NCBI GenBank assembly: GCA_037444445.1
Contig: JBBIMK010000019.1
Coordinates: 1 to 32,000 of the forward strand
Direction of reading: 5' to 3'
Origin: a bacterium
Lineage (GTDB): Bacteria; UBP7; UBA6624; JBBIMK01
Length of the DNA stretch: 32,000 nt
In this document: one piece after another, positions 4,026 to 29,730 of the stretch
How positions within the stretch are numbered: the stretch's first letter is position 1
How the letters are laid out: each line of letters opens with the position of its first letter
Notes under the pieces: generated by a model
What the model was told of the DNA's origin: nothing
The model's input: the letters and a program-made list of their open reading frames with translations, nothing else
Database searches by the model: none
Made by a program: the position numbers and the translations under genes

Positions 4026-4830
4026 CGATATTCTCTAAGATGAGGATAGAGGTGACGGGGCCAACGCCTCCGGGCACGGGGGAAATGAAGGAGGTGAGGG
4101 GGCTCACGGAAGGGAAGTCTACATCGCCCACGAGTTGCCCCTGAACATAATTGGTGCCTACATCCACGACGACGGCGCCTGGCTTGACCATTTCGCCAGT
4201 CACCAGCCCTGCCTTACCTGCGGCGGCCACGAGAATGTCAGCACGAATGCAATGATGTGCCAGATTGGCAGTTTTGGTGTGGCACAGGGTTACGGTGGCA
4301 TCCCGATGGAGGAAAAGAAGAGCCAGGGGACGGCCCACCACGAGGCTTCTGCCGATAACCACCGCTTCCTTACCCCGAATTTCTATCCCACTTTCATCCA
4401 GGATGCGGAGGACGGCGGCAGGCGTTGCAGGCACCACGCAAGGCTTGCCAGCGAACAACCGCCCCAGATTCCCGGGGTGTAAACCATCGGCATCCTTCTC
4501 CCGGGGAATCCGACTGAAAATCGCTTCCTCCTCCACCTGGAAGGGCAGTGGTCGTTCCACCATCACCGCATCATATTCCGGAGATGACGAGACACGGGAG
4601 AGGGTTTCCAGAAATATCTCCCGGTCCATAGAAGCCATATCCAGAAGGTGGAGGGAGATGCCGAGGCGTTCAGCCCGTTTGGCTTTGCTTTTCACATAAC
4701 TGATGACTTCTGGAATGGAGGAGGAGTAAAACACGGCCGCAGACGGGGGCGCCGCCAAACTCCTTAAACGCTCTTTGAGACCGGATTCTATCCGAGATGC
4801 TATCTCCTTACCATCTATGACATGGGTCAT
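3982..4830 (-). CDS. folD: Bifunctional methylenetetrahydrofolate dehydrogenase / methenyl-THF cyclohydrolase
   Basis: 282 aa. 'IDGKEIASRI' N-terminus, 'VERPLP', 'KDADGLHPGNLGRL', 'VVIGRSLVVGRPLA', 'PVPGGVGPVT' are the canonical FolD blocks. Confidence 0.9.
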   Translation of the reverse strand: MTHVIDGKEIASRIESGLKERLRSLAAPPSAAVFYSSSIPEVISYVKSKAKRAERLGISLHLLDMASMDREIFLETLSRVSSSPEYDAVMVERPLPFQVEEEAIFSRIPREKDADGLHPGNLGRLFAGKPCVVPATPAAVLRILDESGIEIRGKEAVVIGRSLVVGRPLALLFLHRDATVTLCHTKTANLAHHCIRADILVAAAGKAGLVTGEMVKPGAVVVDVGTNYVQGQLVGDVDFPSVSPLTSFISPVPGGVGPVTSILILENIVALAERLHTPIETP

Positions 4831-4843
4831 GAGAAATTCATCT

Positions 4844-7015
4844 TCAGGAGGCAGCGAGTCGGGAGGGGGGTGCCAGATGACCGGTTTTCACCAACCTCTC
4901 AAATGCCTCCACCACCTGGGGGTCAAACTGTATGCCCTCGGCTTCCCGAATCCGGCGCACAGCCTCCTGCAGAGGGAGGGCGGGGCGATACTTCCGCTCC
5001 GTCGTCATCGCATCAAAAGCATCTGCCAGCGCCATGATTCGGGCAATCAATGGGATTTCTTCCCCTCTCAAACCATCGGGATACCCGCCACCTGCATACC
5101 ATTCGTGATGAGAGCGAATGGCACTCCGAACGGGCTGTAAAAATTTAATCGGACTACAGATAATATCCCCCTGAACCGCGTGCTTTTTGATTTCGGTAAA
5201 CTCTTCTTCTGTCAAACGGCCGGGCTTTAACAGCACAGATTCCCGAACGCCAATTTTTCCTACATCATGGAGGATTCCGGCAATATTCAATAACTCCAGA
5301 AGTTGGGAGGAAATCCCCATTTCCCTGGCAATCAGGGTGGTATAGCGAGCCACCCGCTCGGAATGACCACGAGTGTAAGGGTCCTTCGCTTCAATGGCTT
5401 CGGCAAGAGCGCGGACTGTTTCTAAGTAACTGTCCCGGAGTTCATAATATAGTTTGGCATTTTTCAAGGCTATGACGGCATGATGGGCAATGGACTGGAG
5501 GAGAGATTGGTCTCGCTCGTCAAAGGGGGTGCCATCTATTTTATCGCTCACATTGATGACCCCAATTATTTCATCGTCCACTTCCAGCGGGACGATGATG
5601 GCCGAGCGGGTCAGATATTGGGGATTTGCCAGCCGCTGAAATAGAGGGTCGGATTGCACATCCCGTATCAAAAGAGGCTTTTTGTTCTGGAACACCCATC
5701 CGGCAATCCCTTCTCCAGGGTGGAGTTTCGCCTCTCGGGCCGCCTCCGGGCTCATCCCGGCACTGGCTTTCACCTTCAGGTAGCCATCGTCATCCAACAG
5801 CATCACGGACCCCCGCCGAGTCTTCAATCCATCCGTCACCGCCAGGATGATGGAATTCAAAGTCTTCTGCAGGTCTAAAGTTGAAGAGACCAGTTGAGAA
5901 GTTTGATGCAGGATGGACACTTCGGTAATCCGTCTGTGGAAACTCTCCGTAGTGTATAGGTTTTCCATAGACAGAGCCACCTGGCGGATAAAAGTGGTAA
6001 TAACCTGGAGATGGCCAGGCAGGAAGGAGCGATTGCTTTCAGGGTTGTCCATATAAACGACGCCGAAGACTTTTCTCATAGAACAGCGGATGAAATCTGC
6101 CTCGTAGATTTTGGAAAAGCCTACATGAACAAGGGTGCGCTCGGGCAAGAACTGGAGGGCGCAGCACCGTGGAGTTCCACAAACCTCGGGTGTTCGGCAC
6201 GGAATCTCGGCGGTCAGGTCCACCGGTATGGCGATGCCCTCCTTCGTCGGGTGAACAATGGACTCAAAAATCCCTTCGGGGGGCAACTCCGAGCCTTGCA
6301 CACATTTCCCTTCCGGGTTCAGTACAGCAGTGGAGAGCAGGCGTCCCTCCTGCAAAGGAATATGGAGTGAAGAGAACAGACCCGCAGAAAACCCCCGGCA
6401 AGCCACCGGAAGAAGTTCCTTCAAATCACTGGAGAAACGGAAGAAAAAGAGTCGCTCCGCGGAAGTCAGACGGGTGAAATGAAGAAGGGATACCTCCGCC
6501 AGTGCTTCCACAGATTGAACTGTGGTGAGGCTACCCACAAACTTTCCATAAGTCCGCATCTGTTGGAGAGATGCATCCAGTTGTGCCTGCATTTCCTGGA
6601 GGAGGCCGTAAGGGTATTCCTCGGCAGGAGCGGTGGGAAGAACGGGTGAGGGAGGCAACAGGTCCAGAATTTGAAAGAAACTGGGCAGGTCAAAGGGCTT
6701 CACCAAATAGGCATCGGCCCCCGTATCCATCTCCGATAGCCGCCTTTTCTCTTCCTCATTTTGAACAATCAGCACCACAGGAATGGCTTTCCACTGGAGG
6801 TTGTTTTTCAGGAGGCGGGCGAAGGAGCCCCCTTCCAGCCTCGGAAGTTGATGCTCAAGGATTAATGCAGAGCATCCCTTCTCCCGGAGAAGTCGGTAAG
6901 CCTCCAACACATCCGTGGCGCGCGCAAACTCATAACCCTTTAAGGATACCGCCTGCTCCAGGAACTGGGCAAAGGTATCATCGGGTGTAGTAAAGATTAG
7001 TCGCCGAGTTTCCAT
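4844..7015 (-). CDS. Response-regulator-like REC - GAF - HD-GYP protein (putative c-di-GMP phosphodiesterase)
   Basis: Start moved to ATG 7015 ('METRRLIFTTPDD...'), because the track's 121-aa N-terminal extension overlaps the yqeG-like gene. REC-like block ends at 'YLVKPFD'. GAF block 'GSVMLLDDDGYLKV...GEGIAGWV...IIVPL..IIGVINV'. HD-GYP signature 'ILHDVGKIGV' and 'HHEWYAGGGYPDGL'. Confidence 0.85.
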   Translation of the reverse strand: METRRLIFTTPDDTFAQFLEQAVSLKGYEFARATDVLEAYRLLREKGCSALILEHQLPRLEGGSFARLLKNNLQWKAIPVVLIVQNEEEKRRLSEMDTGADAYLVKPFDLPSFFQILDLLPPSPVLPTAPAEEYPYGLLQEMQAQLDASLQQMRTYGKFVGSLTTVQSVEALAEVSLLHFTRLTSAERLFFFRFSSDLKELLPVACRGFSAGLFSSLHIPLQEGRLLSTAVLNPEGKCVQGSELPPEGIFESIVHPTKEGIAIPVDLTAEIPCRTPEVCGTPRCCALQFLPERTLVHVGFSKIYEADFIRCSMRKVFGVVYMDNPESNRSFLPGHLQVITTFIRQVALSMENLYTTESFHRRITEVSILHQTSQLVSSTLDLQKTLNSIILAVTDGLKTRRGSVMLLDDDGYLKVKASAGMSPEAAREAKLHPGEGIAGWVFQNKKPLLIRDVQSDPLFQRLANPQYLTRSAIIVPLEVDDEIIGVINVSDKIDGTPFDERDQSLLQSIAHHAVIALKNAKLYYELRDSYLETVRALAEAIEAKDPYTRGHSERVARYTTLIAREMGISSQLLELLNIAGILHDVGKIGVRESVLLKPGRLTEEEFTEIKKHAVQGDIICSPIKFLQPVRSAIRSHHEWYAGGGYPDGLRGEEIPLIARIMALADAFDAMTTERKYRPALPLQEAVRRIREAEGIQFDPQVVEAFERLVKTGHLAPPSRLAAS

Positions 7016-7497
7016 AACCGTGTCAGCCAACCTTCCAGCCGGCGGGCGAACCATCGGGTAATAAAAAACTCCCGGGGTGAAATCGGCCGCACCCAGGCTG
7101 TCCGAACTTTCACCAGCTTCCCCAGTAGGATGTCCGTCAGTAACTGGTCCCCGACGAAAATGACTTTCTCTCGGGGCAAGCGGAGCAGACGCAAGGCTTT
7201 CCAGGTGGCGAAGGGAACGGGCTTTAATGCCAAACGAACCGCTGGCACTCCTAATTTTTCTGCCAGGTCCCTCAAACGAGCCCAGGGTGAGTTGGAAATA
7301 AGAACCATTTTCACGCCTTCTGCCTGGGTTCTTCTCACCCAGTTTTCTACCTCTTTGCTGAAAGAATTCCCGCCCCACGGCAGTAGGGTATTATCCAGGT
7401 CCACCAGCAACCCTTCCACCTTCTGCTCCCTCAGCAGAACAGGCGTAATCTCCGACACACTATTCAGCACAAAATCTGGCTTCAAAAAATCCAGCAT
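6997..7497 (-). CDS. YqeG-family HAD-IIIA phosphatase
   Basis: 166 aa. 'GLLVDLDNTLLPW' (HAD motif I), 'VLISNS', 'VIFVGDQLLTDILLG' (motif IV). Size and order are typical of YqeG-type phosphatases. Confidence 0.8.
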   Translation of the reverse strand: MLDFLKPDFVLNSVSEITPVLLREQKVEGLLVDLDNTLLPWGGNSFSKEVENWVRRTQAEGVKMVLISNSPWARLRDLAEKLGVPAVRLALKPVPFATWKALRLLRLPREKVIFVGDQLLTDILLGKLVKVRTAWVRPISPREFFITRWFARRLEGWLTRLWKLGD

Positions 7498-8727: not shown

Positions 8728-9267
8728 TCAAGTGGCAGAGATGAGACCATAGTTCCCGTCGTTCCGACAGTACAGCACGCTGACCTGAAGGTCTTCCGAG
8801 TTTATAAAAACGAAGAAAGAATGCCCCAGAAGTTCCATCTGGAGGATGGCTTCGTCCGGGCTCATAGGCTTGAGTTCCACCAATTTTCTTCGCACGATGC
8901 GAGGAGAACCGGGAATGGAAGGCCCCGGTGTGGCAGTTTCGGCGCGGGCAACTACCCGTGGCTCGCCCGGCTTTCGGGGTTTATCTTCCTTCAGCGTTTT
9001 ATACCGCTTCACCTGCCGCTCCAGTTTCTCCATCAAGACATCAATCACCTGAAATGCCCCATCCCCGATTTCTTCTGCGCGGATGATGTTGCCGGGAACT
9101 TTTAAAGTAACCTGGGCCCGGAATCCTGCCTTCTCATCCGATAATTCCACATCCGCACTCAGGATTCGCTGGTAGAATCGCCCGAGTTTTTGCACCTTCT
9201 TCCCTACATACTCTCGGATTTCCGCAGGAATATCGCCATTTTTTCTCTGTATACTCACCTGCATCAT
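8728..9267 (-). CDS. hpf: Ribosome hibernation-promoting factor, long form
   Basis: 'IPAEIREYVGKKVQKLGRFYQRI..ADVEL' (S30AE/sigma-54 modulation domain). C-terminal dimerisation domain 'VRRKLVELKPMSPDEAILQMELLGHSFFVFIN'. Start set at ATG 9267, 5 nt after GGGGGTG; the track start at 9273 is a GTG. Confidence 0.9.
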   Translation of the reverse strand: MMQVSIQRKNGDIPAEIREYVGKKVQKLGRFYQRILSADVELSDEKAGFRAQVTLKVPGNIIRAEEIGDGAFQVIDVLMEKLERQVKRYKTLKEDKPRKPGEPRVVARAETATPGPSIPGSPRIVRRKLVELKPMSPDEAILQMELLGHSFFVFINSEDLQVSVLYCRNDGNYGLISAT

Positions 9268-9293
9268 TATCACCCCCTGTCGGGCATATTCTT

Positions 9294-9322
9294 ATTGTAT
9301 GAGATAACCGGCAGGCTGTCAA
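9294..9322 (-). promoter_or_regulatory. Sigma-70-type promoter for hpf
   Basis: Minus strand reads TTGACA (9322-9317), a 17-nt spacer, then TACAAT (9299-9294), about 27 nt upstream of the hpf start. Confidence 0.6.
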
Positions 9323-9564
9323 GAAAGGAGGATTAGGAAAACAGGTTTTGCGGGCTTGGAGGAACCCTGTTTCTCACTGACTCGGCGAATTCTACAACCT
9401 GTTCAGGCAAAACCTATCCTCCAATTCTGAGGTTGTTAGGGTAGTGATGTTCGTGTGGAGATTGTCTCTCCGGGGGAAAGAGGCAGGGTGAGAGGGAAAC
9501 CATCGTTTTTAAGCGGGAAACACCTTGAACTGTGGCCGTTCGCATCCCCTTCACCTCCCGTAAC

Positions 9565-9593
9565 TTGCAACCTGTCTGTTGATATGTTATATT
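9565..9593 (+). promoter_or_regulatory. Sigma-70-type promoter for the Big_2/NHL lipoprotein gene
   Basis: TTGCAA (9565-9570), a 17-nt spacer, then TATATT (9588-9593). GGAGGTG RBS at 9611-9617 and ATG at 9623. Confidence 0.55.
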
Positions 9594-9622
9594 ACCATAT
9601 CAGTAAGGATGGAGGTGAGTTT

Positions 9623-11110
9623 ATGAAGAAACGATTTTTGTTTTACGGCGTAGCAGGTGCTTTCTTGGTTCTCTACCTGGTGGGATGCCAGGGGGAAGAT
9701 ACCCGGATTCTGCCGGTGGAGGGTGGGCTGATAAATAACCCGGGGAAGAAACCTCCTGTGGGTGAAGTCAGCGTCGCCGTGAATCCCCCCATTGCGAGCG
9801 TCCTCACGGGCGATACTCTCCAGTTCTCCGCATCAGTATCCGGAACGGAGGACCAGCGGGTGACCTGGAGCGTGGTGGAAGGTCCCTCCTGCGGGTCTAT
9901 CACATCTGGAGGGCTTTACACCGCTCCTTCTACGGCGCCGGAGAGTGGGAAGTGCCACATCAGAGCCACCAGTGTGGCAGACCCCTCCCAATCCGCCACC
10001 GCTGAAATTACCATCACTTCTTCCGTTGTGGGCTGCGTCGCCCCCACCATTCCCGGCTTCTCTGGATATGTGGACATCTTCAGTGGAAATTCAGGCCAGG
10101 TGGATGGTCCCATTGGACCCAACGGAACGGCAGAGATTGATATTCACCACGCCACGGGAATAGTGGACGATGGCAGGAACCACTTCTTTATTCCAGATAG
10201 CAATGGCGGAGTCCGCAAGATTGACCTGAATGTAACTCCCGGGCAAATGACCACGGTGATTAACGCATCTGACTGGTCAAATGGTGGAGGAACTGGCTCG
10301 GTTACCGGTATTGCCCTCCTGCCCAATGGTGACATCCTCGTCTCCGATGGAGGTGTGTCAGTCATCTGGCGAGTAACGCAATCCGGGCAAATGTCCCTCT
10401 TTGCCGGGGAGTATGATACTTCCGGCTATCAGGATGGTCCCGCCACTGGCGGAGGCGAAGGTAATGCTCTCTTCAACCTGGATGAGGCTGGGCTTACCGT
10501 GGGTCCCAACGGTGAGGTCTATGTGGCAGACGATGAGAACTGCGCCATTCGCAAAATCAGCAACGGGCAGGTCTCCACCGTTGCCATTACCCCGAATTCC
10601 CTTAACGCAAACTGTCCCGTTGTAACCCCTTCCCCGGGTGCTATCGTCACAGACCTGTTAGTGAATCCAACAGGCGTGGCGGTGGACTGCAATGGCAACA
10701 TCCTGGTGGCGGCTGCATCAGCGAACCGTGTCTTACGGGTTATCCTTACCGGTCCGAATGCAGGGCAGGTCGTCACTGTGGCTGGCACCGGGGCAGGCGA
10801 TGATTCAACGGATAACACTGACCCGCTTCAGGCAGATTTTTGCTACCCGATTGCCATCTCCGTGGACCGGGATAACAACATTATCGTCAGCGACCACTGT
10901 GGCACCTTCCGTCGGATAGCCGCGGGGCAGAATATTCCAGGCGCCGATGGCACAGCCCCCAATGGCGAGGTCACTTCTCCGCTGGGCTATAATCAGCCCG
11001 GTTCTCCACTGGAGTATATTGCTTTCACGAAGGATGGCAATCCGGTTCTGGTCATAAACGCTCAGCGGATTGCCCTGACCTATGTGGGGTCGCCCCCGCC
11101 GGGGTATTAA
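9623..11110 (+). CDS. Lipoprotein with Ig-like (Big_2) domain and NHL/six-bladed beta-propeller repeats
   Basis: Start set at ATG 9623: 'MKKRFLFYGVAGAFLVLYLVGC' is a lipobox signal with a strong upstream RBS. 'LTGDTLQFSASVSG..VTWSV...GLYTAPS' is Big_2-like. Repeated 'P.G.A.D..GN..V.D..N..IR' units (e.g. 'GPNGEVYVADDENCAIRKI', 'NPTGVAVDCNGNILVAAASANRVLRV', 'PIAISVDRDNNIIVSDH') are NHL-type blades. Confidence 0.7.
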   Translation: MKKRFLFYGVAGAFLVLYLVGCQGEDTRILPVEGGLINNPGKKPPVGEVSVAVNPPIASVLTGDTLQFSASVSGTEDQRVTWSVVEGPSCGSITSGGLYTAPSTAPESGKCHIRATSVADPSQSATAEITITSSVVGCVAPTIPGFSGYVDIFSGNSGQVDGPIGPNGTAEIDIHHATGIVDDGRNHFFIPDSNGGVRKIDLNVTPGQMTTVINASDWSNGGGTGSVTGIALLPNGDILVSDGGVSVIWRVTQSGQMSLFAGEYDTSGYQDGPATGGGEGNALFNLDEAGLTVGPNGEVYVADDENCAIRKISNGQVSTVAITPNSLNANCPVVTPSPGAIVTDLLVNPTGVAVDCNGNILVAAASANRVLRVILTGPNAGQVVTVAGTGAGDDSTDNTDPLQADFCYPIAISVDRDNNIIVSDHCGTFRRIAAGQNIPGADGTAPNGEVTSPLGYNQPGSPLEYIAFTKDGNPVLVINAQRIALTYVGSPPPGY

Positions 11111-11129
11111 AACAAGGAGGAGAGGAGAA

Positions 11130-11855
11130 ATGATAAAAAGGAAAATTATTCTCTGGGTCGGGATACTTCTGATAAGCGGGGTGATGGCGGCCTCACGGGC
11201 TTTCGGGGCGTCCCTCGTTCAGCCGGGCTTCGGCAACGGCTTCATCAACACGCCCATAGCGTGGAACTCTGCCCACGGCTGGGCTATCGGAATCTATGAT
11301 GCCACCGCAGGAGGGCTGTTAGCGGATTCCATTAAACTGGCTGGCTCTTACTCCTACGAAGATTTAGAATTCTCTGCCGGCCTTGTGGACTACGGCGATA
11401 AGAACGATACCTTCCTTCTGGGCATCTCGGGTCGGTATAACTTCCACGCATCGGAGACAGGGTTTTATGCCACTGTCCTGGCGGGCTTACAGAGGAACCG
11501 GAATGATGTGGCGGATAATTCTACCGCTCTGGGCGCTCTGCTTTTTGGGCAGAAGTTCCGGGGTGGCGGCGTTTCCCTCGGCGCCTTCCTCTGGAGCGAT
11601 GCCGGTGTGGATAACGCTGGAAATGAAGTGAACACGGACTTTGAAGCCACCGGCAATATCTACTACGACTTCAGCGATACCTGGAGCATCTTTGGTGAAG
11701 GCTATTCCTTCGCCGATGCAGATAAAGCGGGCTGGGCATTTGGCCTCCTCTACAAATTCCACGACAACATTACGGGCATGCTGGCGGTCTCCGGCGCCAG
11801 CGACCCGGTGGACGACAGCCAGATTCAGTTGGGAGTGAACTTCCGCCTTCAATAA
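11130..11855 (+). CDS. Putative small outer-membrane beta-barrel protein
   Basis: Start set at ATG 11130 after AAGGAGGAGAGGAG. Signal peptide 'ILWVGILLISGVMAASRAFG'. The remainder is Gly/Tyr/aromatic-rich alternating strands ending '...QLGVNFRLQ'. No family recognised. Confidence 0.4.
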   Translation: MIKRKIILWVGILLISGVMAASRAFGASLVQPGFGNGFINTPIAWNSAHGWAIGIYDATAGGLLADSIKLAGSYSYEDLEFSAGLVDYGDKNDTFLLGISGRYNFHASETGFYATVLAGLQRNRNDVADNSTALGALLFGQKFRGGGVSLGAFLWSDAGVDNAGNEVNTDFEATGNIYYDFSDTWSIFGEGYSFADADKAGWAFGLLYKFHDNITGMLAVSGASDPVDDSQIQLGVNFRLQ

Positions 11856-11956
11856 GGCTTCTGGATTGCTCCGCCAATAAATTGGCGTTAAATCTTTGAG
11901 CGGTGATAAATCCCCGCCTGCACAGGGTGCCGCACTCGGAAAGGGGTGAAGTATTT

Positions 11957-13282
11957 TCAGGCGGGTGGCGGGGCTTCCACAGGAGCCATCTCTTCCTCTT
12001 CCGGCGCCTCCACCACCAGTATTCCTTTATCCACGAGAAACTTCTCAATCAACAGGGCGTTTTCCTCACCCACGCCCTCCAGTGCCGAGAGTTCAGAAAT
12101 CGTGAAGCGGAACAAATCGCCCACCACATTCAACCCATTCTTTTTCAGGATTTCCACCACTCCTGCCGGAAGGTCTGTCTTCTCTAACTCCAGCGCTGGC
12201 AGGGCTTTAAATTCGCTTTCTTTGACGATGTCAATATACCAGCCGGTCAGTTTCCCCGCCAGGCGCACATTCTCCCCTTGCTTTCCGATAGCCTGGGAGT
12301 AAGCCTTATCCGGAACCTCCACAATCATCTTCCGCTTTCCGGGTTCCAGGTTGACGATATGCACCGCATTGATGTCCTGGAGCTTGAGGGGGCTGAGAGC
12401 GTTACTGACGAACTTTTTCGGGTCATCATCGTAGTGAATCACATCAATGCGTTCACCGGAGAGCATACGGACGATGGGGAGGATTCTTCTCCCTTCAGCG
12501 CCGATGCAGGCTCCCACCGGGTCCACATTCGGGTCTTTAGAAATCACCGCCACCTTCGCCCGAACACCGGGAGAACGAACGACCTTCTTCACTTCTACCA
12601 GCCCGTGACGCACTTCGGGAATTTCCCGCTCAAATAGCTTCTTCAGCAGGTCGGGATGGGTTCGGGAAACGCGAGCCAGCGGCACGCCCGTGGGAGTCTT
12701 GGTGATTTTCAACAGTAGCACTTCCAGTTCCTTTCCCCGCCGTAGTTTTTCATCACGGATTCGCTCCCGAAATTCCAGAACCGCATCCAGTTTATTCAGG
12801 TCCAGCCACACATCACCCCGTTCATCCATTTTATAAATTTTCCCCGTGACCAATTCATTCTCCTTCACTTTCATTTTTTGAAAGAGGTTTTCCCGCTCCC
12901 GATTGATGATGTTCTGCACGAATTCTTCCCCGGCTGCCTGGAGGGCGATTCGGCTGAAGTCCTTCAGCGAGATTTCTTCCCGATAAAACTCGCCTGCGCC
13001 CGTATAAGGCTCTTTTTTCGTCGCTTCTTCCACCGAGATTTCCAGAACTGGATTCTCCACCTTCGGCACGACGCGTTTCAAAAGATACATCCTGGCAATC
13101 CCTTTCTGCAAATCCAGTTCTACCCGAAGGTTCTCCGGCGGGCTTTCCAGATGCTTGTCCTTCATATAGCCCACCTTCAGTGCGGATTCCAGCGCCGCCT
13201 CCAGTTCTCCCTTTTCCAGCGCCCGCTCCCGGGAAATCGTTTGAACCAATTCCACAATCTCTGCCTGCCGCTCTTCAGCCAT
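11957..13282 (-). CDS. nusA: Transcription termination/antitermination factor NusA
   Basis: S1 block 'LVTGKIYKMDERGDVWLDL'. KH blocks 'RAKVAVISKDPNVDPVGACIGAEGRRILPIVRMLSGERIDVIHY' and 'AIGKQGENVRLAGKLTGWYIDI'. One C-terminal HhH-like repeat. Confidence 0.95.
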   Translation of the reverse strand: MAEERQAEIVELVQTISRERALEKGELEAALESALKVGYMKDKHLESPPENLRVELDLQKGIARMYLLKRVVPKVENPVLEISVEEATKKEPYTGAGEFYREEISLKDFSRIALQAAGEEFVQNIINRERENLFQKMKVKENELVTGKIYKMDERGDVWLDLNKLDAVLEFRERIRDEKLRRGKELEVLLLKITKTPTGVPLARVSRTHPDLLKKLFEREIPEVRHGLVEVKKVVRSPGVRAKVAVISKDPNVDPVGACIGAEGRRILPIVRMLSGERIDVIHYDDDPKKFVSNALSPLKLQDINAVHIVNLEPGKRKMIVEVPDKAYSQAIGKQGENVRLAGKLTGWYIDIVKESEFKALPALELEKTDLPAGVVEILKKNGLNVVGDLFRFTISELSALEGVGEENALLIEKFLVDKGILVVEAPEEEEMAPVEAPPPA

Positions 13283-13490: not shown

Positions 13491-13952
13491 CTAAAATTCT
13501 ATCGCGGGCTCTATCCGAACGGATTGAATCACTTCCTCTGGAATAAAACGCTTTTCTCCCTCGGAAAACAGCAGTAGCACACCCTCCTGATACTCCCGGA
13601 GTTCCCCTTTATATATTTTCTCATTCTTCAAAATGACACGGACTTTATAGCCTTGATACCGGATGAAATGCTCTTTCTTTTTCAAAGCCCGGTCCACCCC
13701 AGGAGAGGAAACTTCCAGATGGTAGTCCCCTCCGAGGAGTTCTTCTATCATAGGTTCATTTCGGATGAGGTTATTCACCTTCACACAATCCTCAATGCCC
13801 GTTTTCCCTTCTCTTTCAATAAACACCCGAACCTGGGGGTTCGTGGAGAGGATACCGGTGATGGAGATGTCCCACAATTCATACCCCCGTGAAGAAAGGA
13901 TTTTTTCAATTCGCCACTCAATTTCCCGTTTTCTTTCCTCAATATGAGACAA
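13491..13952 (-). CDS. rimP: Ribosome maturation factor RimP
   Basis: 153 aa. 'GYELWDI......VRVFIE...G..IEDC..V......' and 'LEVSSPGVDRALKK..HF..Y.G..V.V' are typical of RimP. Located upstream of nusA. Confidence 0.9.
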   Translation of the reverse strand: MSHIEERKREIEWRIEKILSSRGYELWDISITGILSTNPQVRVFIEREGKTGIEDCVKVNNLIRNEPMIEELLGGDYHLEVSSPGVDRALKKKEHFIRYQGYKVRVILKNEKIYKGELREYQEGVLLLFSEGEKRFIPEEVIQSVRIEPAIEF

Positions 13953-15261: not shown

Positions 15262-15277
15262 GCTATTCGCTTCCCAC

Positions 15278-15760
15278 TCACGAGTATACTCTTATGCCTA
15301 TCCCGGTAATAAATTTTTTTAGAGTTTTCAGCCTTTCGCTTTTGCTCCTCTTTATCGCATTGATGAGTTGTTCAAAATTCCGCAGGTTTGCAGGTTGATT
15401 TATCACCTTTTTGATTTTATTTCCTTCATCCGGCAGGGCGAATCTGGATAAATCTATTTCCGCTTCCGATGCAGTTTTCACAATCCAACTTTCTAACATC
15501 GGACACAATACGATTAAGAGATTTTGCCTTTTCCCATCCTTGCATAGTTTTATTTCGTCTTTGCGCGCAATTAGTTGCATCTCTTTCAAATACCAGGGTT
15601 GGACAGATTCCGGGTCCTCATCTACCAATCCCTTTGAATTCGTGCTATTTCTTAAATGCTTGCACACATTTCCTTTACCGCCTGAATGTGTGATATTCTT
15701 TTTTCTCCCCTCAAGAGTTTTCACCAGGATTTTATCAGGCTTGCACTCCACAAATATCAT
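15278..15760 (-). CDS. Small Toprim/DUF4435-like protein, putative nuclease partner of the upstream ATPase
   Basis: Start set at ATG 15760, 4 nt after the ATPase stop; the track's 20-aa extension overlaps the ATPase gene. 'MIFVECKPD' (Glu5), 'GLVDEDPE' (D47-E48-D49) and 'LCPMLESWIV' fit the E...DxD...E-x-W layout of Toprim-type OLD/DUF4435/DUF4276 domains. AT-rich coding sequence. Confidence 0.55.
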   Translation of the reverse strand: MIFVECKPDKILVKTLEGRKKNITHSGGKGNVCKHLRNSTNSKGLVDEDPESVQPWYLKEMQLIARKDEIKLCKDGKRQNLLIVLCPMLESWIVKTASEAEIDLSRFALPDEGNKIKKVINQPANLRNFEQLINAIKRSKSERLKTLKKFITGIGIRVYS

Positions 15761-15764
15761 TCTA

Positions 15765-16751
15765 TCATGCTTTTTCCAAGAAACGCTCCAGGTTGAAAAA
15801 CACGCTGGAGTCCATCTCAAGTATTTCAGCCAACTCCTCTTGAACGAGAGGCCTCACCTTCGTTTGATAATCACCATAGTAAGTAATAAAAATCTTGATT
15901 TCATCTATGGGTGTTTTTTCTAATACCGCAAGTAGAAAATAGGGATTGTGAGTGGAAATAAAATATTGATTGGAATCATCTATGGCGATATTTTCTGCGA
16001 GATACTTCGTGTAATACGGGAAAGCGTGGGCTTCCGGCTCCTCAAAGATGATGATGGAATCCTTGTTCGTTTCCATGGCTACAAAATGAAAAACCACTCG
16101 CAGTAAAGTATCAGAAGCCAGTGAATAAGGATAAGCAATGAAAGTTCCATCACTCTCTTTCAGAACCTCAATTTTATTTTCTGTTTGTCTTAAGTTAATC
16201 CGAAACCCGTATTCGCGGAAGAAATCTGTTACCCGCTTCCTTAATTCTTTATGGGTTATAAGAATCGTCAGGAGATTTTCTCCCCCAGGTGGTAAAAGAT
16301 AATCTGCCTCCTGGCTTTTGAAACTATCCAACACTTGAAAACGATAGAATTTGAAAGGTAAAGGTTTACTGATAGGTTTTGTGGAAAGGATTAGACCGGC
16401 TTCATTACAGGAAATGTGAAAGAGGGGCTTTTGCCTGGCTTTATCTACTAAACTCAGATGGAATTGTCTATCTTTGTAACTGACTTCGCATCCATACTCA
16501 CCAGCACTGATTCTGATGTTAGAGACCAGATTGTTGTCATAAAACAGGTTCGTCATAGATTCAATTCGGATAAAATCCCTCAGATGCTTATACTCTTTAC
16601 CCTGAATATGTGGAAGTGAGAAGATGCCCACACTTTCCAGGATGTTAGATTTTCCTGCATTCGGTTCACCGATGAAAATGTTGACTCTTTTACAATCCAG
16701 TCTTAAATGTTTGATAGACTTAAAGTTCCTGACTTTTAGGGTGTTTATCAT
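15765..16751 (-). CDS. ABC/SMC-like ATPase of the AAA_15/AAA_21 (OLD/AriA-type) class
   Basis: 'LKVRNFKSIKHLRLDCKRVNIFIGEPNAGKSNILESVG' (Walker A), 'SLASDTLLRV' (signature-like), 'SIIIFEEPEAHAFP' (Walker B/D-loop), 'FISTHNPYF' (H-loop). AT-rich. Confidence 0.8.
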   Translation of the reverse strand: MINTLKVRNFKSIKHLRLDCKRVNIFIGEPNAGKSNILESVGIFSLPHIQGKEYKHLRDFIRIESMTNLFYDNNLVSNIRISAGEYGCEVSYKDRQFHLSLVDKARQKPLFHISCNEAGLILSTKPISKPLPFKFYRFQVLDSFKSQEADYLLPPGGENLLTILITHKELRKRVTDFFREYGFRINLRQTENKIEVLKESDGTFIAYPYSLASDTLLRVVFHFVAMETNKDSIIIFEEPEAHAFPYYTKYLAENIAIDDSNQYFISTHNPYFLLAVLEKTPIDEIKIFITYYGDYQTKVRPLVQEELAEILEMDSSVFFNLERFLEKA

Positions 16752-16761
16752 TTCTACACCA

Positions 16762-25395: not shown

Positions 25396-28300
25396 TTAGA
25401 TTTCCATCGCGTCGGCGAACACCAGCCGACGAGCCCTGGGCACCGGGGCGGCAGTCAACGGAGTCTCAGACGATGGAGCAGTTCCTTCCCCTGCTTTATC
25501 CGCCCTGAACCACTCATATTCCTTGATGACCAATCGGAAGGGCTGGGAACCCCGAGGGGCGGGCAGGATGACCTGACCCGTCCACACATTTTCTTTCTCT
25601 GGCTTCACGGGTGGAGGGGTGGATAGGATGCCCTCCCGGATGATTTCTCCGGGAGCGGTGGATTCAGGAGTGAATCTCTGGATGACTTTCGGCCGGAGTC
25701 TTACGGGTGGAGGGGATGGGCGGGATGGAGCGCCGAGGGTAAAGGTGGCATCGGGGACGGGAACCCAGCCCACATCTCCTTCCACACCCTCCTGCCTTGT
25801 CTCCACGGTCACCTCTACTTCGGAAGGACCTTTGCCCGCTGTCGTCTCCGTGTATGAAATCCCGGAAACCGTGACGGTGAGAACCTTCGGGTCGCCGGGG
25901 TCATAGGAGAGGGTAACAGTGCGGTGGGGTGCCAGCTGGGCAAAATCGGCAAGGACGACCCGGGAAAGATGGGCGTTCTCAATGGAATTGGGCTGATAAC
26001 GGGCAAGGGCAAGACGAACGAAGGGATAATAAGAATCTCCGGGGTCCAGTTCTATGTCAAAGAACCAGAGCCCTCTATCCGGGTCGTAATGAGGCTCGTA
26101 ACCCGCCACAGAAACCTGGTTGGACTCGGGATGGTCAGTTAATTCTTCCAGCGTTAAGCCGGATTGCTTTCTGGCGGTATTCTTAAAATGTGTCAGGGCT
26201 GGGCTGGCAAAAGAAGGGGTGGGGCTGGATTTCCATATAGGGTCCATCCCCCACTGGGTTACATAGGGCTTGAGGATGTCAGGAATTTCTGGCTCGGGTT
26301 GGGCAGGTCTGATGCCGGGCAGGATACCGCTGATGCCTCCACCCATGCCCACCGCTCGGCGGATGGTGGGTGCAACTCCCGGGAGGATGACGCCCAATAA
26401 CTCGCCGTCGCCGGAGGACCACCAGGGACGCTTCACATACACCCGAAGCCCTCCCCCGGTGCGTCGGCTCTCCCTTCCACCCGCCGTCTCCTTCTTCTCC
26501 CACCCAAAGGTGGGAATCACATACAGCACCCCGGGGGCAGAAGGACGAGCAGAGTTGGGTATATCTACCTCAAACTCCTCGCTCTCCCGGGTAATGTTCT
26601 TCGGGTCAGAAGTGATGGCAGGAGAGAAATACTCACGAAATCGGGTGCTGGCTACTGCCCTGTAATAAACCTTTCGGTATTTCGTATCACCGAATTCATG
26701 GCGAGGAGCCACCACAGGAAGCAGAGCGCTAACGACCAACGCAGGGGATATACCACGAATTGCTCCCGTGCCCAGCCCGTCTTCCCGTGGAGGGCTGTAG
26801 GAAGAGCCTTCTCCTTGCCCGAGGATGAGGGCTTTCTTCTCTTCGCTGTAGCGGACGCTTCCGCCGGCTACGGGAACCGCTTTTTCATCCAGTTGAACAG
26901 GGGCTTCAAACGCACGGGCGTTCCCGTATAGCCGGTCTTTATCCGGAATATTGGTAGGGCTGGCTGGCTCATCCACCGGCTCGCTCCACCGTGCCAGAAG
27001 GTCAATTTTCATCGTGCTCTTCCCATGAACATTCACCACCCCATCCAGGCCAGCGAAAGTATCACCGATATTCCTGCCTGGCTTTAATGCAGTAATTTTG
27101 GGGATGAGCAGAGGCTGTTGAACCGCATGAACCAGAGTCAGTTCACGATACGGGGTAAGGAGCCAGAGTTTCCCGATGGCACCCAGTTTTGTGAAGTCAG
27201 CCATGGCTAAGGCTTTGGGCTGAATCGCTCCCATATCCATCTTCGGCGCCGCATAAGAGGGCTGGCTTTCCAGCCTTGCCTCCACCTTCTCCTTCATCCA
27301 CTGCCACATTCCAAAGGTGTTCAAATCCTTTTCATCAAGATGGGCGCTGAGGCGAACCGTTGCCACTTCCGCTTTCGGCAGGTAGACCGTGAGGAGGCGG
27401 GAGGAGGCATTCCACCGGGGCTTTCCAGAGCCTTCCTCCACACGAATGCGGAATGGCAAAGCATCAGGCCAGTTTTCGGGAGTGTTCTGAAAGTCCACAT
27501 CTATCACCTCTCCCGCAGGGGCGCCGGGAAGGCCTTCAAAAGCAGCTTTCCGCGCCAGCGGGTCAGGCAGGTAAGGCAATACCAACTGCTCCTCGCTCTG
27601 AATGGCATAACGGAGGGGCTTGGACGGGTTTTCAGGGTTGGGAAATTCCACCTCCTGGAATCTGCCCACATCCTTCTGGGCAATCATCTGATAGGTGGCG
27701 GGGTCGCCTTTCATTCCGCCAGTGGTTTTATCATCAAATAACCCGTGAGTTTCAGCCATCAGTTGAGAGGTTTTCGGCGGGGCGATGTGACGCTCCGTGG
27801 CTTCACCCGTGGGAATGGCATCTTTTGCAGGGGAGTCGTTGAAGGTGCGAATCACCAATCGCTCTAACGATTCACCTTCTCTGGGCTTTTCACGCAGGAC
27901 GACGGGAGGAGTCTGGATGGGTTCAAAGCGCTGATAGGATTGGGCGGAAGAAGCCAGGGAAGCGTCCGCTTCCTCCAGGGAGAGGCTGTTACCTGCCAGG
28001 TCCACCGCCCTCGCCCTCAGGCGGTAAGAAACACCGAAGCGGAGGCGGGGAAGAGTGCCAGGCACAACGGGCGAAAAATTGACCTCCAGCCCGAAGGCAG
28101 TGACCGCTTTATTCTGTATCTCCCCAGGCGTGTCATCCGGTTTGATAGTCCTGCCCGGCCTGGGAACGCAGAGGCTCCAGCCATCCCATCGGAAGAGGGA
28201 TTCGTGAACAAACAGGTCAGAGTCGGTAGCGCCAGGCACCCGGGTTGCCGCTGAGGAAACCATCCCTTCATCCACGATTTCCACATCCTCGTTGATGGAA

Positions 28301-29730
28301 CTGAAGTGATACTTTCCCTTTCGCCAGCACAGGGAGTGCCATTGATTGGATTGAGAATCCCAGACATCAATCCGGTAACCCCTGACCAGGTCCTCGGCAT
28401 ATAAAGTGATGTCCTGAGAGGCCGAGAGGGCATCATTTCTCTGTTTTGCGGACTGGAAGGATTGATTGAGGCGGTCAGCGCGCCCATTTCTCACTATAGA
28501 AAGCCCGGCAGAGCGCATAGAGGGTAAGCCCTGCCTTTGAGGCGGAGGTGCCTCAGGGGCTCCCGAAGGCTGGTCCACTACGGGTGGAGCGTCGGCTTTC
28601 TTCAGCATCACCATAGCGGGAGCCTTGAAGGTGAGAACTCGTTGCAGGTTGCGGGCAAAGTCCATAACCTTCATTGCCGCCCCGTCCACATCCACCTGCA
28701 CCAGCTCATACATCTCCGGGTCGTTCAATTTCAGCATGCCATCCTGAATCTCGGGATTCTGTGGCCGTGGCTTCGCCAGAAACTTCCCCCCCTTGATTTC
28801 ATACGCAGTCCAGGGGGAAGAGTTGGTGGTAGAGGGCAATTGCGCCGCCCAGTTGGGGATTACTCTCAGAGTGGAAGAAGGGGGAATGGAAGAAGAATAG
28901 GGAATTTCCAGGTCCACCACCAGCCCCAGCATCCGTAACAACTCCGGATATTCGCCAAGGGACGAGAGTGCCTGGTGAAAATCTATCTCCGGGATTTGTG
29001 GGGGAATGGGCTTCATCAGCAGGGGTTGGTGGAAAAACTGAACCTGCAGGAAGTCCACGGGTGTGTTTCTAACCGGACTGAAGGGGATGGCTTTCCTGCC
29101 CTTGAATTCCTTCTCTAATTCCGAGGGCATAGGGCGCACTGAAGATACGGGCGCATCCACTCCCGGAGGCGCATGCCCCACAGAAGAGCGAAGTTGCGGT
29201 ATAGAATGCAGGACGGTGGGACCCAGCCCAACTGTGGCATCCTTCGGATTTATCAGGGTTTGAATCTCCGGCAACTCCGTAGGTGAAGAGATAGCCACAT
29301 TCTGATAGGTCTCTTTCAGGTATGAGAGGACATGCTTCACAGGGAAAGAATGGATTTTCCGCTCCGAATAATCCTCAAACTTGTGAGGGCGAACAAAGGT
29401 GGATTCATTGAACAGGGCTTTCCAGAGGCTGGAATCCGGGTCCGGACTCGTCCGGGGAGCGGGAATGGGAGCCCCGTTTCCGAATTGAACCGAGAACTGG
29501 ATGGATTTCAGAGTGGCGGGCAAATCCAGAAAATCCGGAAATTGAGACAGAGTCGGCTTCGGCAAGCCAATACTCGTATCCAGGCGAGGGGAAAGAAAGA
29601 CAGAAAGCCGAAGGCGCTGGTCGCCGCCAGAACCGGTGATGCCTGCAGGCAGAGCGGTCCAGAGGAGGAGTTGCTTCCTCTGCCCCGTTAGAGCCACAAC
29701 CGGTGGAAGTTTTGGAATCATCACGCCCAT
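25396..29730 (-). CDS. Very large hypothetical protein (1444 aa), no recognisable domain
   Basis: Uninterrupted 4.3-kb ORF. ATG at 29730 lies 8 nt after GGGGG. Host-like base composition. No signal peptide, TM segment, Walker A/B or metalloprotease motif seen. Pro/Gly/Ser-rich and appears beta-rich. Confidence 0.85.
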   Translation of the reverse strand: MGVMIPKLPPVVALTGQRKQLLLWTALPAGITGSGGDQRLRLSVFLSPRLDTSIGLPKPTLSQFPDFLDLPATLKSIQFSVQFGNGAPIPAPRTSPDPDSSLWKALFNESTFVRPHKFEDYSERKIHSFPVKHVLSYLKETYQNVAISSPTELPEIQTLINPKDATVGLGPTVLHSIPQLRSSVGHAPPGVDAPVSSVRPMPSELEKEFKGRKAIPFSPVRNTPVDFLQVQFFHQPLLMKPIPPQIPEIDFHQALSSLGEYPELLRMLGLVVDLEIPYSSSIPPSSTLRVIPNWAAQLPSTTNSSPWTAYEIKGGKFLAKPRPQNPEIQDGMLKLNDPEMYELVQVDVDGAAMKVMDFARNLQRVLTFKAPAMVMLKKADAPPVVDQPSGAPEAPPPQRQGLPSMRSAGLSIVRNGRADRLNQSFQSAKQRNDALSASQDITLYAEDLVRGYRIDVWDSQSNQWHSLCWRKGKYHFSSINEDVEIVDEGMVSSAATRVPGATDSDLFVHESLFRWDGWSLCVPRPGRTIKPDDTPGEIQNKAVTAFGLEVNFSPVVPGTLPRLRFGVSYRLRARAVDLAGNSLSLEEADASLASSAQSYQRFEPIQTPPVVLREKPREGESLERLVIRTFNDSPAKDAIPTGEATERHIAPPKTSQLMAETHGLFDDKTTGGMKGDPATYQMIAQKDVGRFQEVEFPNPENPSKPLRYAIQSEEQLVLPYLPDPLARKAAFEGLPGAPAGEVIDVDFQNTPENWPDALPFRIRVEEGSGKPRWNASSRLLTVYLPKAEVATVRLSAHLDEKDLNTFGMWQWMKEKVEARLESQPSYAAPKMDMGAIQPKALAMADFTKLGAIGKLWLLTPYRELTLVHAVQQPLLIPKITALKPGRNIGDTFAGLDGVVNVHGKSTMKIDLLARWSEPVDEPASPTNIPDKDRLYGNARAFEAPVQLDEKAVPVAGGSVRYSEEKKALILGQGEGSSYSPPREDGLGTGAIRGISPALVVSALLPVVAPRHEFGDTKYRKVYYRAVASTRFREYFSPAITSDPKNITRESEEFEVDIPNSARPSAPGVLYVIPTFGWEKKETAGGRESRRTGGGLRVYVKRPWWSSGDGELLGVILPGVAPTIRRAVGMGGGISGILPGIRPAQPEPEIPDILKPYVTQWGMDPIWKSSPTPSFASPALTHFKNTARKQSGLTLEELTDHPESNQVSVAGYEPHYDPDRGLWFFDIELDPGDSYYPFVRLALARYQPNSIENAHLSRVVLADFAQLAPHRTVTLSYDPGDPKVLTVTVSGISYTETTAGKGPSEVEVTVETRQEGVEGDVGWVPVPDATFTLGAPSRPSPPPVRLRPKVIQRFTPESTAPGEIIREGILSTPPPVKPEKENVWTGQVILPAPRGSQPFRLVIKEYEWFRADKAGEGTAPSSETPLTAAPVPRARRLVFADAMEI

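Follow-up and report, generated by a model that had tools for sequence, protein, structure and literature searches.

An AT-rich ABC ATPase gene and its small acidic partner between ispG and a GT2 gene: a candidate two-gene conflict module in a UBP7 bacterium

Why does an essential-gene array of a bacterium contain two AT-rich genes, one for an ATPase and one for a small protein of an unannotated family, with hardly any space around them? The stretch analysed here, referred to as the window, comprises 32,000 nt from a bacterium of the GTDB lineage UBP7 (UBA6624, JBBIMK01; positions 1 to 32,000 of contig JBBIMK010000019.1, assembly GCA_037444445.1). On its minus strand the array runs rpsB-tsf-pyrH-frr-uppS-cdsA-rseP-ispG, then the two genes in question, then GT2-mgtC-rimP-nusA-infB. 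A first-pass annotation of this DNA had put the two-gene cassette forward as a candidate minimal defence module resembling OLD and PARIS, built from an ATPase and a Toprim-type nuclease. On balance, we lean towards the view of a self-contained two-gene conflict module, of the defence or addiction class, which was acquired horizontally and combines an ATP-binding cassette (ABC) ATPase with a small nuclease effector. The observations that carry this view are the protein families and their motifs, the obligate pairing, the horizontal spread, the insertion into operons and the embedding in defence systems in some genomes. The cassette and its borders consist of the following parts.

15765 to 16751, minus strand: gene of an ABC-type (AAA_15/AAA_21) ATPase of 328 aa, identified by Pfam and PADLOC matches and by family-conserved motifs; proposed sensor or regulator subunit.
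15278 to 15760, minus strand: partner gene of 160 aa, unannotated family; proposed metal-dependent nuclease-like effector, judged from an AlphaFold2 (AF2) model and the family profile.
16752 to 16761, minus strand: junction of 10 nt from the ispG stop to the ATPase start; no promoter-like site on the minus strand.
15262 to 15277, minus strand: junction of 16 nt from the stop of the small open reading frame (ORF) to the GT2 start; no terminator-like site.

Both cassette genes are real: they occur as a conserved pair and have homologues at E values of 1e-80 to 1e-205. A word-indexed search with the small protein found 14 relatives only; when 1.84 billion cluster representatives were searched with a profile, 1312 matched at E ≤ 1e-3 and 828 at E ≤ 1e-10. 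Counted in this way, as representatives of clusters at 50% identity, the family has at least 1312 members; among the best 150 of these 1312, nearly all are stand-alone proteins of 145–170 aa. Loci were then fetched via the small protein from 49 GTDB genomes and several metagenome contigs (numbered with the letter L below). Wherever a locus extends far enough upstream, the gene just before the small one encodes an ATPase homologue (E 1e-60 to 1e-118), and the two genes overlap by 4 nt in 36 of the 43 intact pairs. In the window, 4 nt separate the ATPase stop from the ATG of the small ORF at 15760, and the two ORFs are in different frames. A mirror-tree comparison of the pairwise distances of ATPases and partners gave r = 0.80, a value reached in 0 of 2000 permutations. 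The two genes are an obligate, co-evolving pair, mostly translationally coupled, and the earlier treatment of them as one unit is borne out by this constant adjacency and co-evolution.

The pair is found in, among others, Zixibacteria, Ignavibacteriota, Dehalococcoidia, Spirochaetota, Bacteroidota, WOR-3 and Calescibacterium among the bacteria, and in Halobacteria, Syntrophoarchaeum, Methanophagales, Methanosarcinales, Baldrarchaeota, Aenigmatarchaeota, Archaeoglobaceae, Nitrososphaerota, Thermoplasmatales and Bathyarchaeia among the archaea. Across all 49 loci the small proteins share 33–51% identity with the window protein. In 42 of 43 loci (L002–L050), the pair (G+C 26–56%) has a higher A+T content than the flanking sequence, and the average difference is 7.8 points. 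Because the family occurs in many phyla of both domains at this level of identity, because it is nearly always AT-richer than its surroundings and because an ispG–GT2 junction without the cassette exists (L059, see below), we conclude that the unit moves horizontally between distant bacteria and archaea. The AT-richness at any host G+C may stem either from transfer that is always recent or from a constraint built into the family. One copy resides on a mobile element: the pair at L007:5020-7174 belongs to an archaeal pleolipovirus provirus, Geoglobus ahangari pleomorphic virus 1 (BK065157.1, gp14-gp17), where two winged-helix (wHTH) regulator genes enclose it and a RelE/ParE toxin gene is close by. 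A tblastn search against plasmids gave no match. Other copies are decayed: in L014 and L030 a frameshift splits the ATPase gene, and in L051, L053, L054 and L056 the partner gene is cut short.

In the window itself, the composition of the cassette is foreign, as had been proposed. Its G+C content is 39.1% compared to 53.1% in the rest of the window, which makes it the lowest-G+C stretch of 1474 nt there, and its G+C content at third codon positions (GC3) is 0.41–0.44 compared to 0.54–0.63 in the neighbouring genes. The coordinates and the gaps of 10, 4 and 16 nt given in the first-pass annotation are correct, all motifs that it quoted for the two proteins are present in the translations, and its sampled lines, when recomputed, again yield 30–35% G+C within the cassette against 52–62% in the flanks. 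Likewise, its description of a cassette wedged into an essential-gene array, with no tRNA, no flanking repeats and no room for a promoter or terminator of its own, agrees with our searches. No tRNA was found around the cassette, a Rfam scan of the entire window gave no match, and the direct or inverted repeats sought at its flanks amounted to short two-copy matches, none standing out above chance. Counts of promoter-like and terminator-like sites did not exceed those in shuffled sequences, and on the minus strand the borders of the cassette carry no such site. The cassette is probably expressed by read-through from the rpsB to ispG array. The small gene can also be read from a TTG start up to 15820 (15278–15820, 180 aa), overlapping the end of the ATPase gene; this is not the start that the family conserves, since all homologues open with MI[FY]VEC. 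An opposite-strand ORF of 170 aa (15411–15923, plus strand) lies inside the cassette as well. This ORF and the TTG-extended reading look like by-products of AT-rich sequence rather than genes.

The first protein can be assigned to a family with little difficulty. It matches AAA_15 (PF13175) at 1.6e-16 and 61.4 bits (cut-off 32.1) and AAA_21 (PF13304) at 1e-6 and 29.5 bits (cut-off 27), both above the Pfam gathering scores, and the motifs listed here are retained in 46 family ATPases, so that its original description as an AAA_15/AAA_21 ABC ATPase stands.

16644 to 16670, minus strand, residues 28–36: Walker A (P-loop) GEPNAGKSN; G.PN.GKSN.LE at least 95% conserved in the 46 family ATPases.
16095 to 16124, minus strand, residues 210–219: ABC signature-like SLASDTLLRV; the core YPY..AS.T..R is family-conserved.
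16017 to 16055, minus strand, residues 233–245: Walker B and D-loop IIIFEEPEAHAFP; FEEPE...FP.Y conserved in the family.
15942 to 15959, minus strand, residues 265–270: H-loop ISTHNP; STHNPYF conserved in the family.

The signature-like motif corresponds to SDGTLRF of neighbouring AAA_21 ATPases in L046 and L056. With this set of motifs the protein is very probably an active ABC ATPase. Its top PADLOC matches are AriA (4e-18, with the best-scoring stretch confined to residues 1–48), GajA (1e-15), NsnB (4e-15, full length), AbiLi (1e-14) and HEC-01A (1.5e-14); several HEC-01A models match, at 1.5e-14 to 4e-10, as does the Old model. NCBIfam gave sub-threshold matches only, namely the retron-Eco8 effector, MAD3 (1e-8), RecF and PtuA, and the sole match in a sequence search of the PDB is the Thermus OLD nuclease 6P74 (E 0.008).

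The nature of the partner is the more difficult question. The 160-aa protein matches nothing in Pfam, PADLOC 2.0, NCBIfam or PHROG. In an alignment of 137 diverse members, E5, D47, P87 and E90 are invariant, and C6, D9, H25, E48, D49, P50 and W92 are present in at least 90%. Hence, the Glu, DxD and E-x-W residues that had been picked out in the single sequence prove to be the invariant core of a large family, organised in three motifs.

15734 to 15760, minus strand, residues 1–9: motif 1, MIFVECKPD; E5 invariant, at the C-terminal end of strand 1.
15608 to 15631, minus strand, residues 44–51: motif 2, GLVDEDPE, DxD-like; D47 invariant, at the C-terminal end of strand 3.
15479 to 15505, minus strand, residues 86–94: motif 3, CPMLESWIV; P87 and E90 invariant, between the last core strand and the next helix.

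The AF2 model is confident (mean predicted local distance difference test score, pLDDT, 90.4; predicted template-modelling score 0.85) and places strand 1 at residues 2–4, followed by a helix, strand 2 (23–25), a second helix, strand 3 (43–47), a short helix, a beta-hairpin, a strand at 80–85, a helix at 89–99 and a helical C-terminal part. E5 follows strand 1, D47-E48-D49 follow strand 3 and E90 follows the last core strand. According to this model, the small protein is a compact alpha/beta protein with an acidic cluster of E5, D47 and E90, accompanied by the near-invariant E48, D49 and W92, at the C-terminal ends of strands.

Toprim domains carry a Glu after strand 1 and a DxD motif after strand 3 (PMC12065111). 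In the family, the invariant E5 stands right after the strand of residues 2–4, and D47 (invariant in the 137 members) and D49 (at least 90%) stand at the end of the strand of residues 43–47. The order of secondary-structure elements, b-a-b-a-b...b-a, read without the strand order within the sheet, is compatible with a Toprim fold, with an extra beta-hairpin preceding the last strand. Readings of the acidic residues as a PIN or a PD-(D/E)xK site were rejected, because both are at odds with the b-a-b-a-b order and with a DxD that follows strand 3. The chemistry that we consider most likely, with slightly better than even confidence, is that of a Toprim-like nuclease dependent on metal.

Several results count against such a nuclease. 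Foldseek searches of PDB and BFVD with the full AF2 model, and of PDB with a core-only model (residues 1–103, pLDDT 86), gave nothing at E < 1e-3, and their top 50 matches contain no Toprim protein. No Toprim, DUF4276, DUF4435 (PF14491) or RloB hidden Markov model (HMM) matches the partner protein. With hhalign, the family profile reached a probability of 2–9% whether the target was the alignment of canonical DUF4276 (A4), that of a divergent DUF4276 subfamily (A5), a merged alignment or a single partner sequence. Searches of PDB with the protein sequence and with a profile (alignment A1) found nothing relevant, and a Pfam scan of the 137 members gave no family and no Toprim-clan match. In PADLOC, AbiLii matched 3 of the 137 weakly (best 3e-4) and mad4 matched 2 (1.4e-3), at a noise level comparable to the scores of unrelated models in the same scan. 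The fetched loci also contain other ATPase–partner pairs: the additional partner in L046 is a bona fide DUF4276 protein (1.6e-51), that in L048 belongs to a divergent 175-aa DUF4276 subfamily (2.4e-4), some members of which are annotated as PF14103, and that in L056 has no Pfam match. Against canonical DUF4276 the hhalign probability is 3%, and against the divergent subfamily it is 5.7% (P = 0.0067, not significant). The latter alignment puts all three motifs in register, VEC with VEG, VDEDP with DIDERP and LEeW with IEAW, and this collinearity is suggestive only. Since the two DUF4276 alignments themselves reach only 59% against each other, the hhalign test, run with shallow alignments and without secondary structure, has little power.

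The same data bear on the idea that the partner is no nuclease at all. It could instead be an effector or adaptor of different chemistry, such as a nucleotide- or metal-binding regulator or a small-molecule hydrolase of a fold unrelated to Toprim, within the same ATPase–partner logic. Consistent with this, the top Foldseek matches, with template-modelling scores of 0.28–0.52, are generic Rossmann-like sandwiches (among them S-adenosylhomocysteine hydrolase and CinA/gephyrin at 0.38–0.52, E > 0.01) rather than Toprim folds, and the DUF4276 profile comparisons are not significant. We regard this alternative as improbable. Of the original claim of a Toprim-type partner, the arrangement of acidic motifs survives, and the fold is recovered neither by Foldseek, where the suggested comparison of the predicted structure with Toprim folds came out negative, nor by HMMs or hhalign. 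Membership of the Toprim superfamily is therefore unproven, with motifs and secondary-structure order that fit and significant similarity lacking.

If the partner is a Toprim-like nuclease, is the pair a defence system? The gene context in other genomes speaks for defence in some loci. Twice, in L010 (Syntrophoarchaeum) and in the bacterium L046, the pair occupies exactly the space between the genes of HmaB, a DUF1156 methylase, and HmaC, a DUF499 ATPase. In L012 it adjoins a type I restriction enzyme; L022 has an L012-like gene layout with the same DEAD_assoc helicase neighbour and with an upstream 976-aa gene as the putative counterpart of the restriction-enzyme gene; and in L037 a type ISP enzyme is near the pair. 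The Hma island of L046 (HmaB 4373-7360, HmaC 10453-13278) harbours two ATPase–partner pairs: the one upstream of HmaB (L046:2614-4376) is a canonical HEC-01 pair of ATPase and DUF4276 protein, and the one between HmaB and HmaC (L046:8979-10453) is a member of the family studied here. Embedding in Hma systems was the criterion by which Payne and colleagues predicted the HEC (Hma-embedded candidate) systems, 7 of 9 of which were validated (bioRxiv 10.1101/2024.01.29.577857). As a separate observation, L056:7274-10153 carries tandem modules, the first a 392-aa AAA_21 ATPase with a 195-aa partner showing PEDPD, IDRDCD and EEVEMW motifs, the second a family ATPase with only a truncated small gene behind it.

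Three findings pull the other way. The 93 immediate neighbours at the 49 loci are heterogeneous and mostly housekeeping genes rather than defence genes, among them purL (twice), a MutL-family protein, transketolase, trpA and a 2-oxoacid dehydrogenase. A scan of IMG/VR viral contigs found no copy, and HEC-01, the nearest described analogue, was one of the two tested candidates that gave no phage protection (bioRxiv 10.1101/2024.01.29.577857). In two Dehalococcoidia genomes the pair lies directly upstream of purL with gaps of 0–7 nt (L029:10482-13016, L045:10472-12697). The upstream neighbour points the same way as the pair in 40 of 47 cases and the downstream neighbour in 35 of 46, and in 11 of 42 loci the gaps on both sides are 40 nt or less. 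Entering host operons without a promoter of its own is thus a trait of the family and not an oddity of the window.

These insertions would also fit a selfish addiction module, in which the small protein is a toxin and the ATPase its antidote or regulator, and which persists by post-segregational killing, or simply by its embedding in essential operons, with no antiviral benefit. Most insertions lie in housekeeping arrays and not in defence islands, no IMG/VR copy was found, several copies are decayed, the analogue HEC-01 was without defence activity, and PARIS formally acts as a type II toxin–antitoxin pair (PMC13064643). However, the recurrent HmaB–HmaC embedding and the restriction-enzyme neighbours form a signature that has successfully found defence systems, and the known pairs of an ATPase and a Toprim-like protein act in defence. 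In its biochemistry such a module would not differ from the conflict module preferred here, the difference being one of selective benefit alone. We consider an addiction module without antiviral benefit unlikely. A defence role, as originally claimed, draws support from Hma and restriction contexts elsewhere, whereas the neighbours in the window are ispG and the GT2 gene; it is not proven, and the argument for it is one by analogy from other genomes and not from the window itself.

Apart from conflict, could the cassette serve the cell in which it resides? This depends on its history at the ispG–GT2 junction. A 6.6-kb contig (L001) is 96% identical to the window and collinear with it, contains the cassette and keeps all catalytic-type residues. 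Between the two, the ratio of non-synonymous to synonymous differences (pN/pS) is 0.08–0.23 in six flanking genes, 0.50 in the ATPase gene and 0.87 in the small gene; this fast evolution, together with the decayed copies elsewhere, is counted in favour of a conflict module. A 19-kb contig (L137, JGI Ga0137716_10009344) has the gene order of the window and flanking proteins of 82–96% identity. At the same junction it carries a cassette (9029-10459) that overlaps ispG and the GT2 gene by 4 nt each, with a GC3 of 0.40–0.48 and with an ATPase of 60% and a small protein of 51% identity to those of the window. The two cassettes are no closer to each other than to cassettes of other phyla, and in neighbour-joining trees they form an exclusive clade in 101 of 300 bootstraps, i.e. 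their sisterhood is not resolved. At identical residues, the divergence of four-fold degenerate sites is 0.54 in the cassette and 0.41 in the flanks (p = 0.016), a difference driven by the small gene, with the value for the ATPase gene alone (0.48) inside the flank range. The L137 allele may thus be explained either by vertical descent with 3–8-fold faster protein evolution or by replacement with a divergent allele, which would make the junction a replacement hotspot.

An IspG-based metagenome scan for close relatives lacking the cassette turned up only relatives of at most 45% identity. In one of these, L059 (IspG 41% identical), ispG is directly followed by a GT2 homologue (42%, E 3e-56), with no cassette in between. 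Because ispG and GT2 are adjacent in L059, the data fit an insertion of the cassette into a pre-existing ispG–GT2 junction.

A housekeeping role, for example in RecF/Rad50-like DNA repair or in RNA processing co-regulated with the translation and isoprenoid array, has to be judged on the same observations. Three related genomes keep an undamaged cassette at this site, it is predicted to be co-transcribed with essential genes, and the ATPase has weak RecF and Rad50 N-terminal matches. These scores are, however, far under the cut-offs, the distribution is patchy across phyla and domains, and the junction of L059 is free of the cassette. In addition, GC3 is persistently foreign, pN/pS is 4–8 times that of the neighbours and copies elsewhere are pseudogenised. 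We therefore regard a housekeeping role as very unlikely. The first-pass annotation had named conservation of the cassette downstream of ispG throughout the lineage, with host-like codon usage, as the finding that would speak for such a role. Part of this was found, namely conservation in three related genomes, with absence in the distant L059; the host-like codon usage was not, given the non-host codon usage and a protein divergence 3–8 times that of the flanks.

If the cassette is a conflict module, our best reading, drawn by analogy, is that its nearest designs are PARIS AriA/AriB, AbiLi/AbiLii, MADS Mad3/Mad4 and the PADLOC candidate HEC-01. With HEC-01 it shares the two-gene layout, in which the gene of an AAA_15/21 ABC ATPase precedes that of a small, acidic alpha/beta protein that stands alone, and the HmaB–HmaC slot (L010, L046), which the window does not show; the L046 island holds both types. 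Unlike in HEC-01, the partner has no HEC-01B or DUF4276 (PF14103) match, either for the window protein or for the 137 members at E ≤ 1. Furthermore, it is about 150 aa long versus 170–240 aa and carries a true DxD (VDEDP) versus the single Asp of canonical DUF4276, and the ATPase has 328 aa versus about 360–460 aa.

PARIS, also known as 'class 4 OLD', is common on phages and satellites, whereas the present family occurs in no IMG/VR contig. The two have in common the split into ATPase and effector, and AriA is the best PADLOC match of the ATPase (4e-18), albeit best only over the N-terminal 48 or so residues, and the partner has no DUF4435 (PF14491) or AriB match. The proteins, of about 38 and 18 kDa, are smaller than AriA (55 kDa) and AriB (35 kDa) (PMC11464382), in agreement with the statement in the first-pass annotation that both are shorter than the canonical versions. 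Of its OLD/PARIS-like label, the ATPase clade and the split architecture hold, and membership of PARIS or OLD was supported by none of the tests run.

AbiL proteins comprise about 460 and 300 aa, so that both proteins of the cassette (328 and 160 aa) are smaller. AbiL and RloA/RloB likewise pair an ATPase with a small Toprim-like partner, a character that is putative here, and some copies lie in restriction-modification loci; AbiLi matches the ATPase (1e-14), whereas the window partner has no AbiLii or RloB match and the AbiLii matches of 3 of the 137 members are weak and at noise level. OLD and Gabija GajA share the ATPase clade (GajA, Old and 6P74 matches) and the acidic Glu/DxD/Glu logic, but theirs is a fused unit, with ATPase and Toprim on a single chain in OLD classes 1–3, and the present one is split; it does not match Toprim_OLD, and it lacks both a GajB helicase partner and a dimerisation insert of comparable size. 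Mad3 of MADS is a related ATPase (NCBIfam MAD3 1e-8), with a score far under the family cut-off (34.6 versus 420 bits). Mad4 is a DUF4276 homologue (PMC12065111); mad4 is matched weakly by two family members (1.4e-3), and no methylase accompanies the pair in the window. NsnB of Menshen is also a related ATPase (4e-15, full length), and neither NsnA (DUF262) nor NsnC stands beside the pair in the window.

Two features outside the cassette are recorded for completeness. The rimP gene (13491–13952, minus strand) has a G+C content of 45% and a GC3 of 0.51, below its neighbours, a dip far milder than that of the cassette, and rimP of L137 is likewise low (46% G+C). A very long ORF of 1444 aa (25396–29730, minus strand) lies upstream of the ribosomal and translation array.

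How might such a pair work? In PARIS, AriA sequesters AriB until a phage trigger frees this tRNA-cleaving nuclease (PMC11464382, PMC13064643). Modelled on this system, we infer a nuclease chemistry, an ATPase–effector complex, a trigger and an antiviral benefit for the present family. The ATPase, probably a dimer, would keep the effector inactive and would sense a trigger, which could be a phage protein or a lost host function. ATP binding or hydrolysis, or release of the effector, would then free the nuclease to act on tRNA or DNA. Its acidic cluster would bind a divalent metal and cleave nucleic acid in a Toprim-like manner, and this cutting would halt the growth of the infected cell.

The architecture as such is known; the effector family, the minimal size and the insertion behaviour are new when judged against Pfam, PADLOC 2.0, NCBIfam and PHROGs, and DefenseFinder or a post-2023 PADLOC may name the family. 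A bolder proposal, which we put forward only tentatively and consider rather doubtful as a whole, is that the pair represents an undescribed and widespread minimal conflict family (at least 1300 clusters in bacteria and archaea), that its effector has a fold without a match among solved structures, either a new nuclease fold or an extremely pared-down Toprim, and that it spreads as a promoter-less and repeat-less, operon-inserting cassette which is then exchanged or diversified on site. This last step is suggested because the L137 allele is only 51–60% identical at the same junction, with flanks at 82–96%.

Pairs of an ABC ATPase and a nuclease are among the commonest designs of prokaryotic immunity. 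If the present reading is true, the family would provide the smallest version so far with two proteins, of about 38 and 18 kDa, and such a minimal pair would be attractive for learning how an ABC ATPase gates a nuclease. Since the family sits inside essential operons and off the defence islands, island-based discovery would overlook it. A further question is by what route a cassette without integrase, repeats or promoter enters such operons, and how divergent alleles come to occupy one site. The family is frequent in poorly studied lineages, namely archaea of the ANME and Methanophagales groups, Dehalococcoidia and Zixibacteria.

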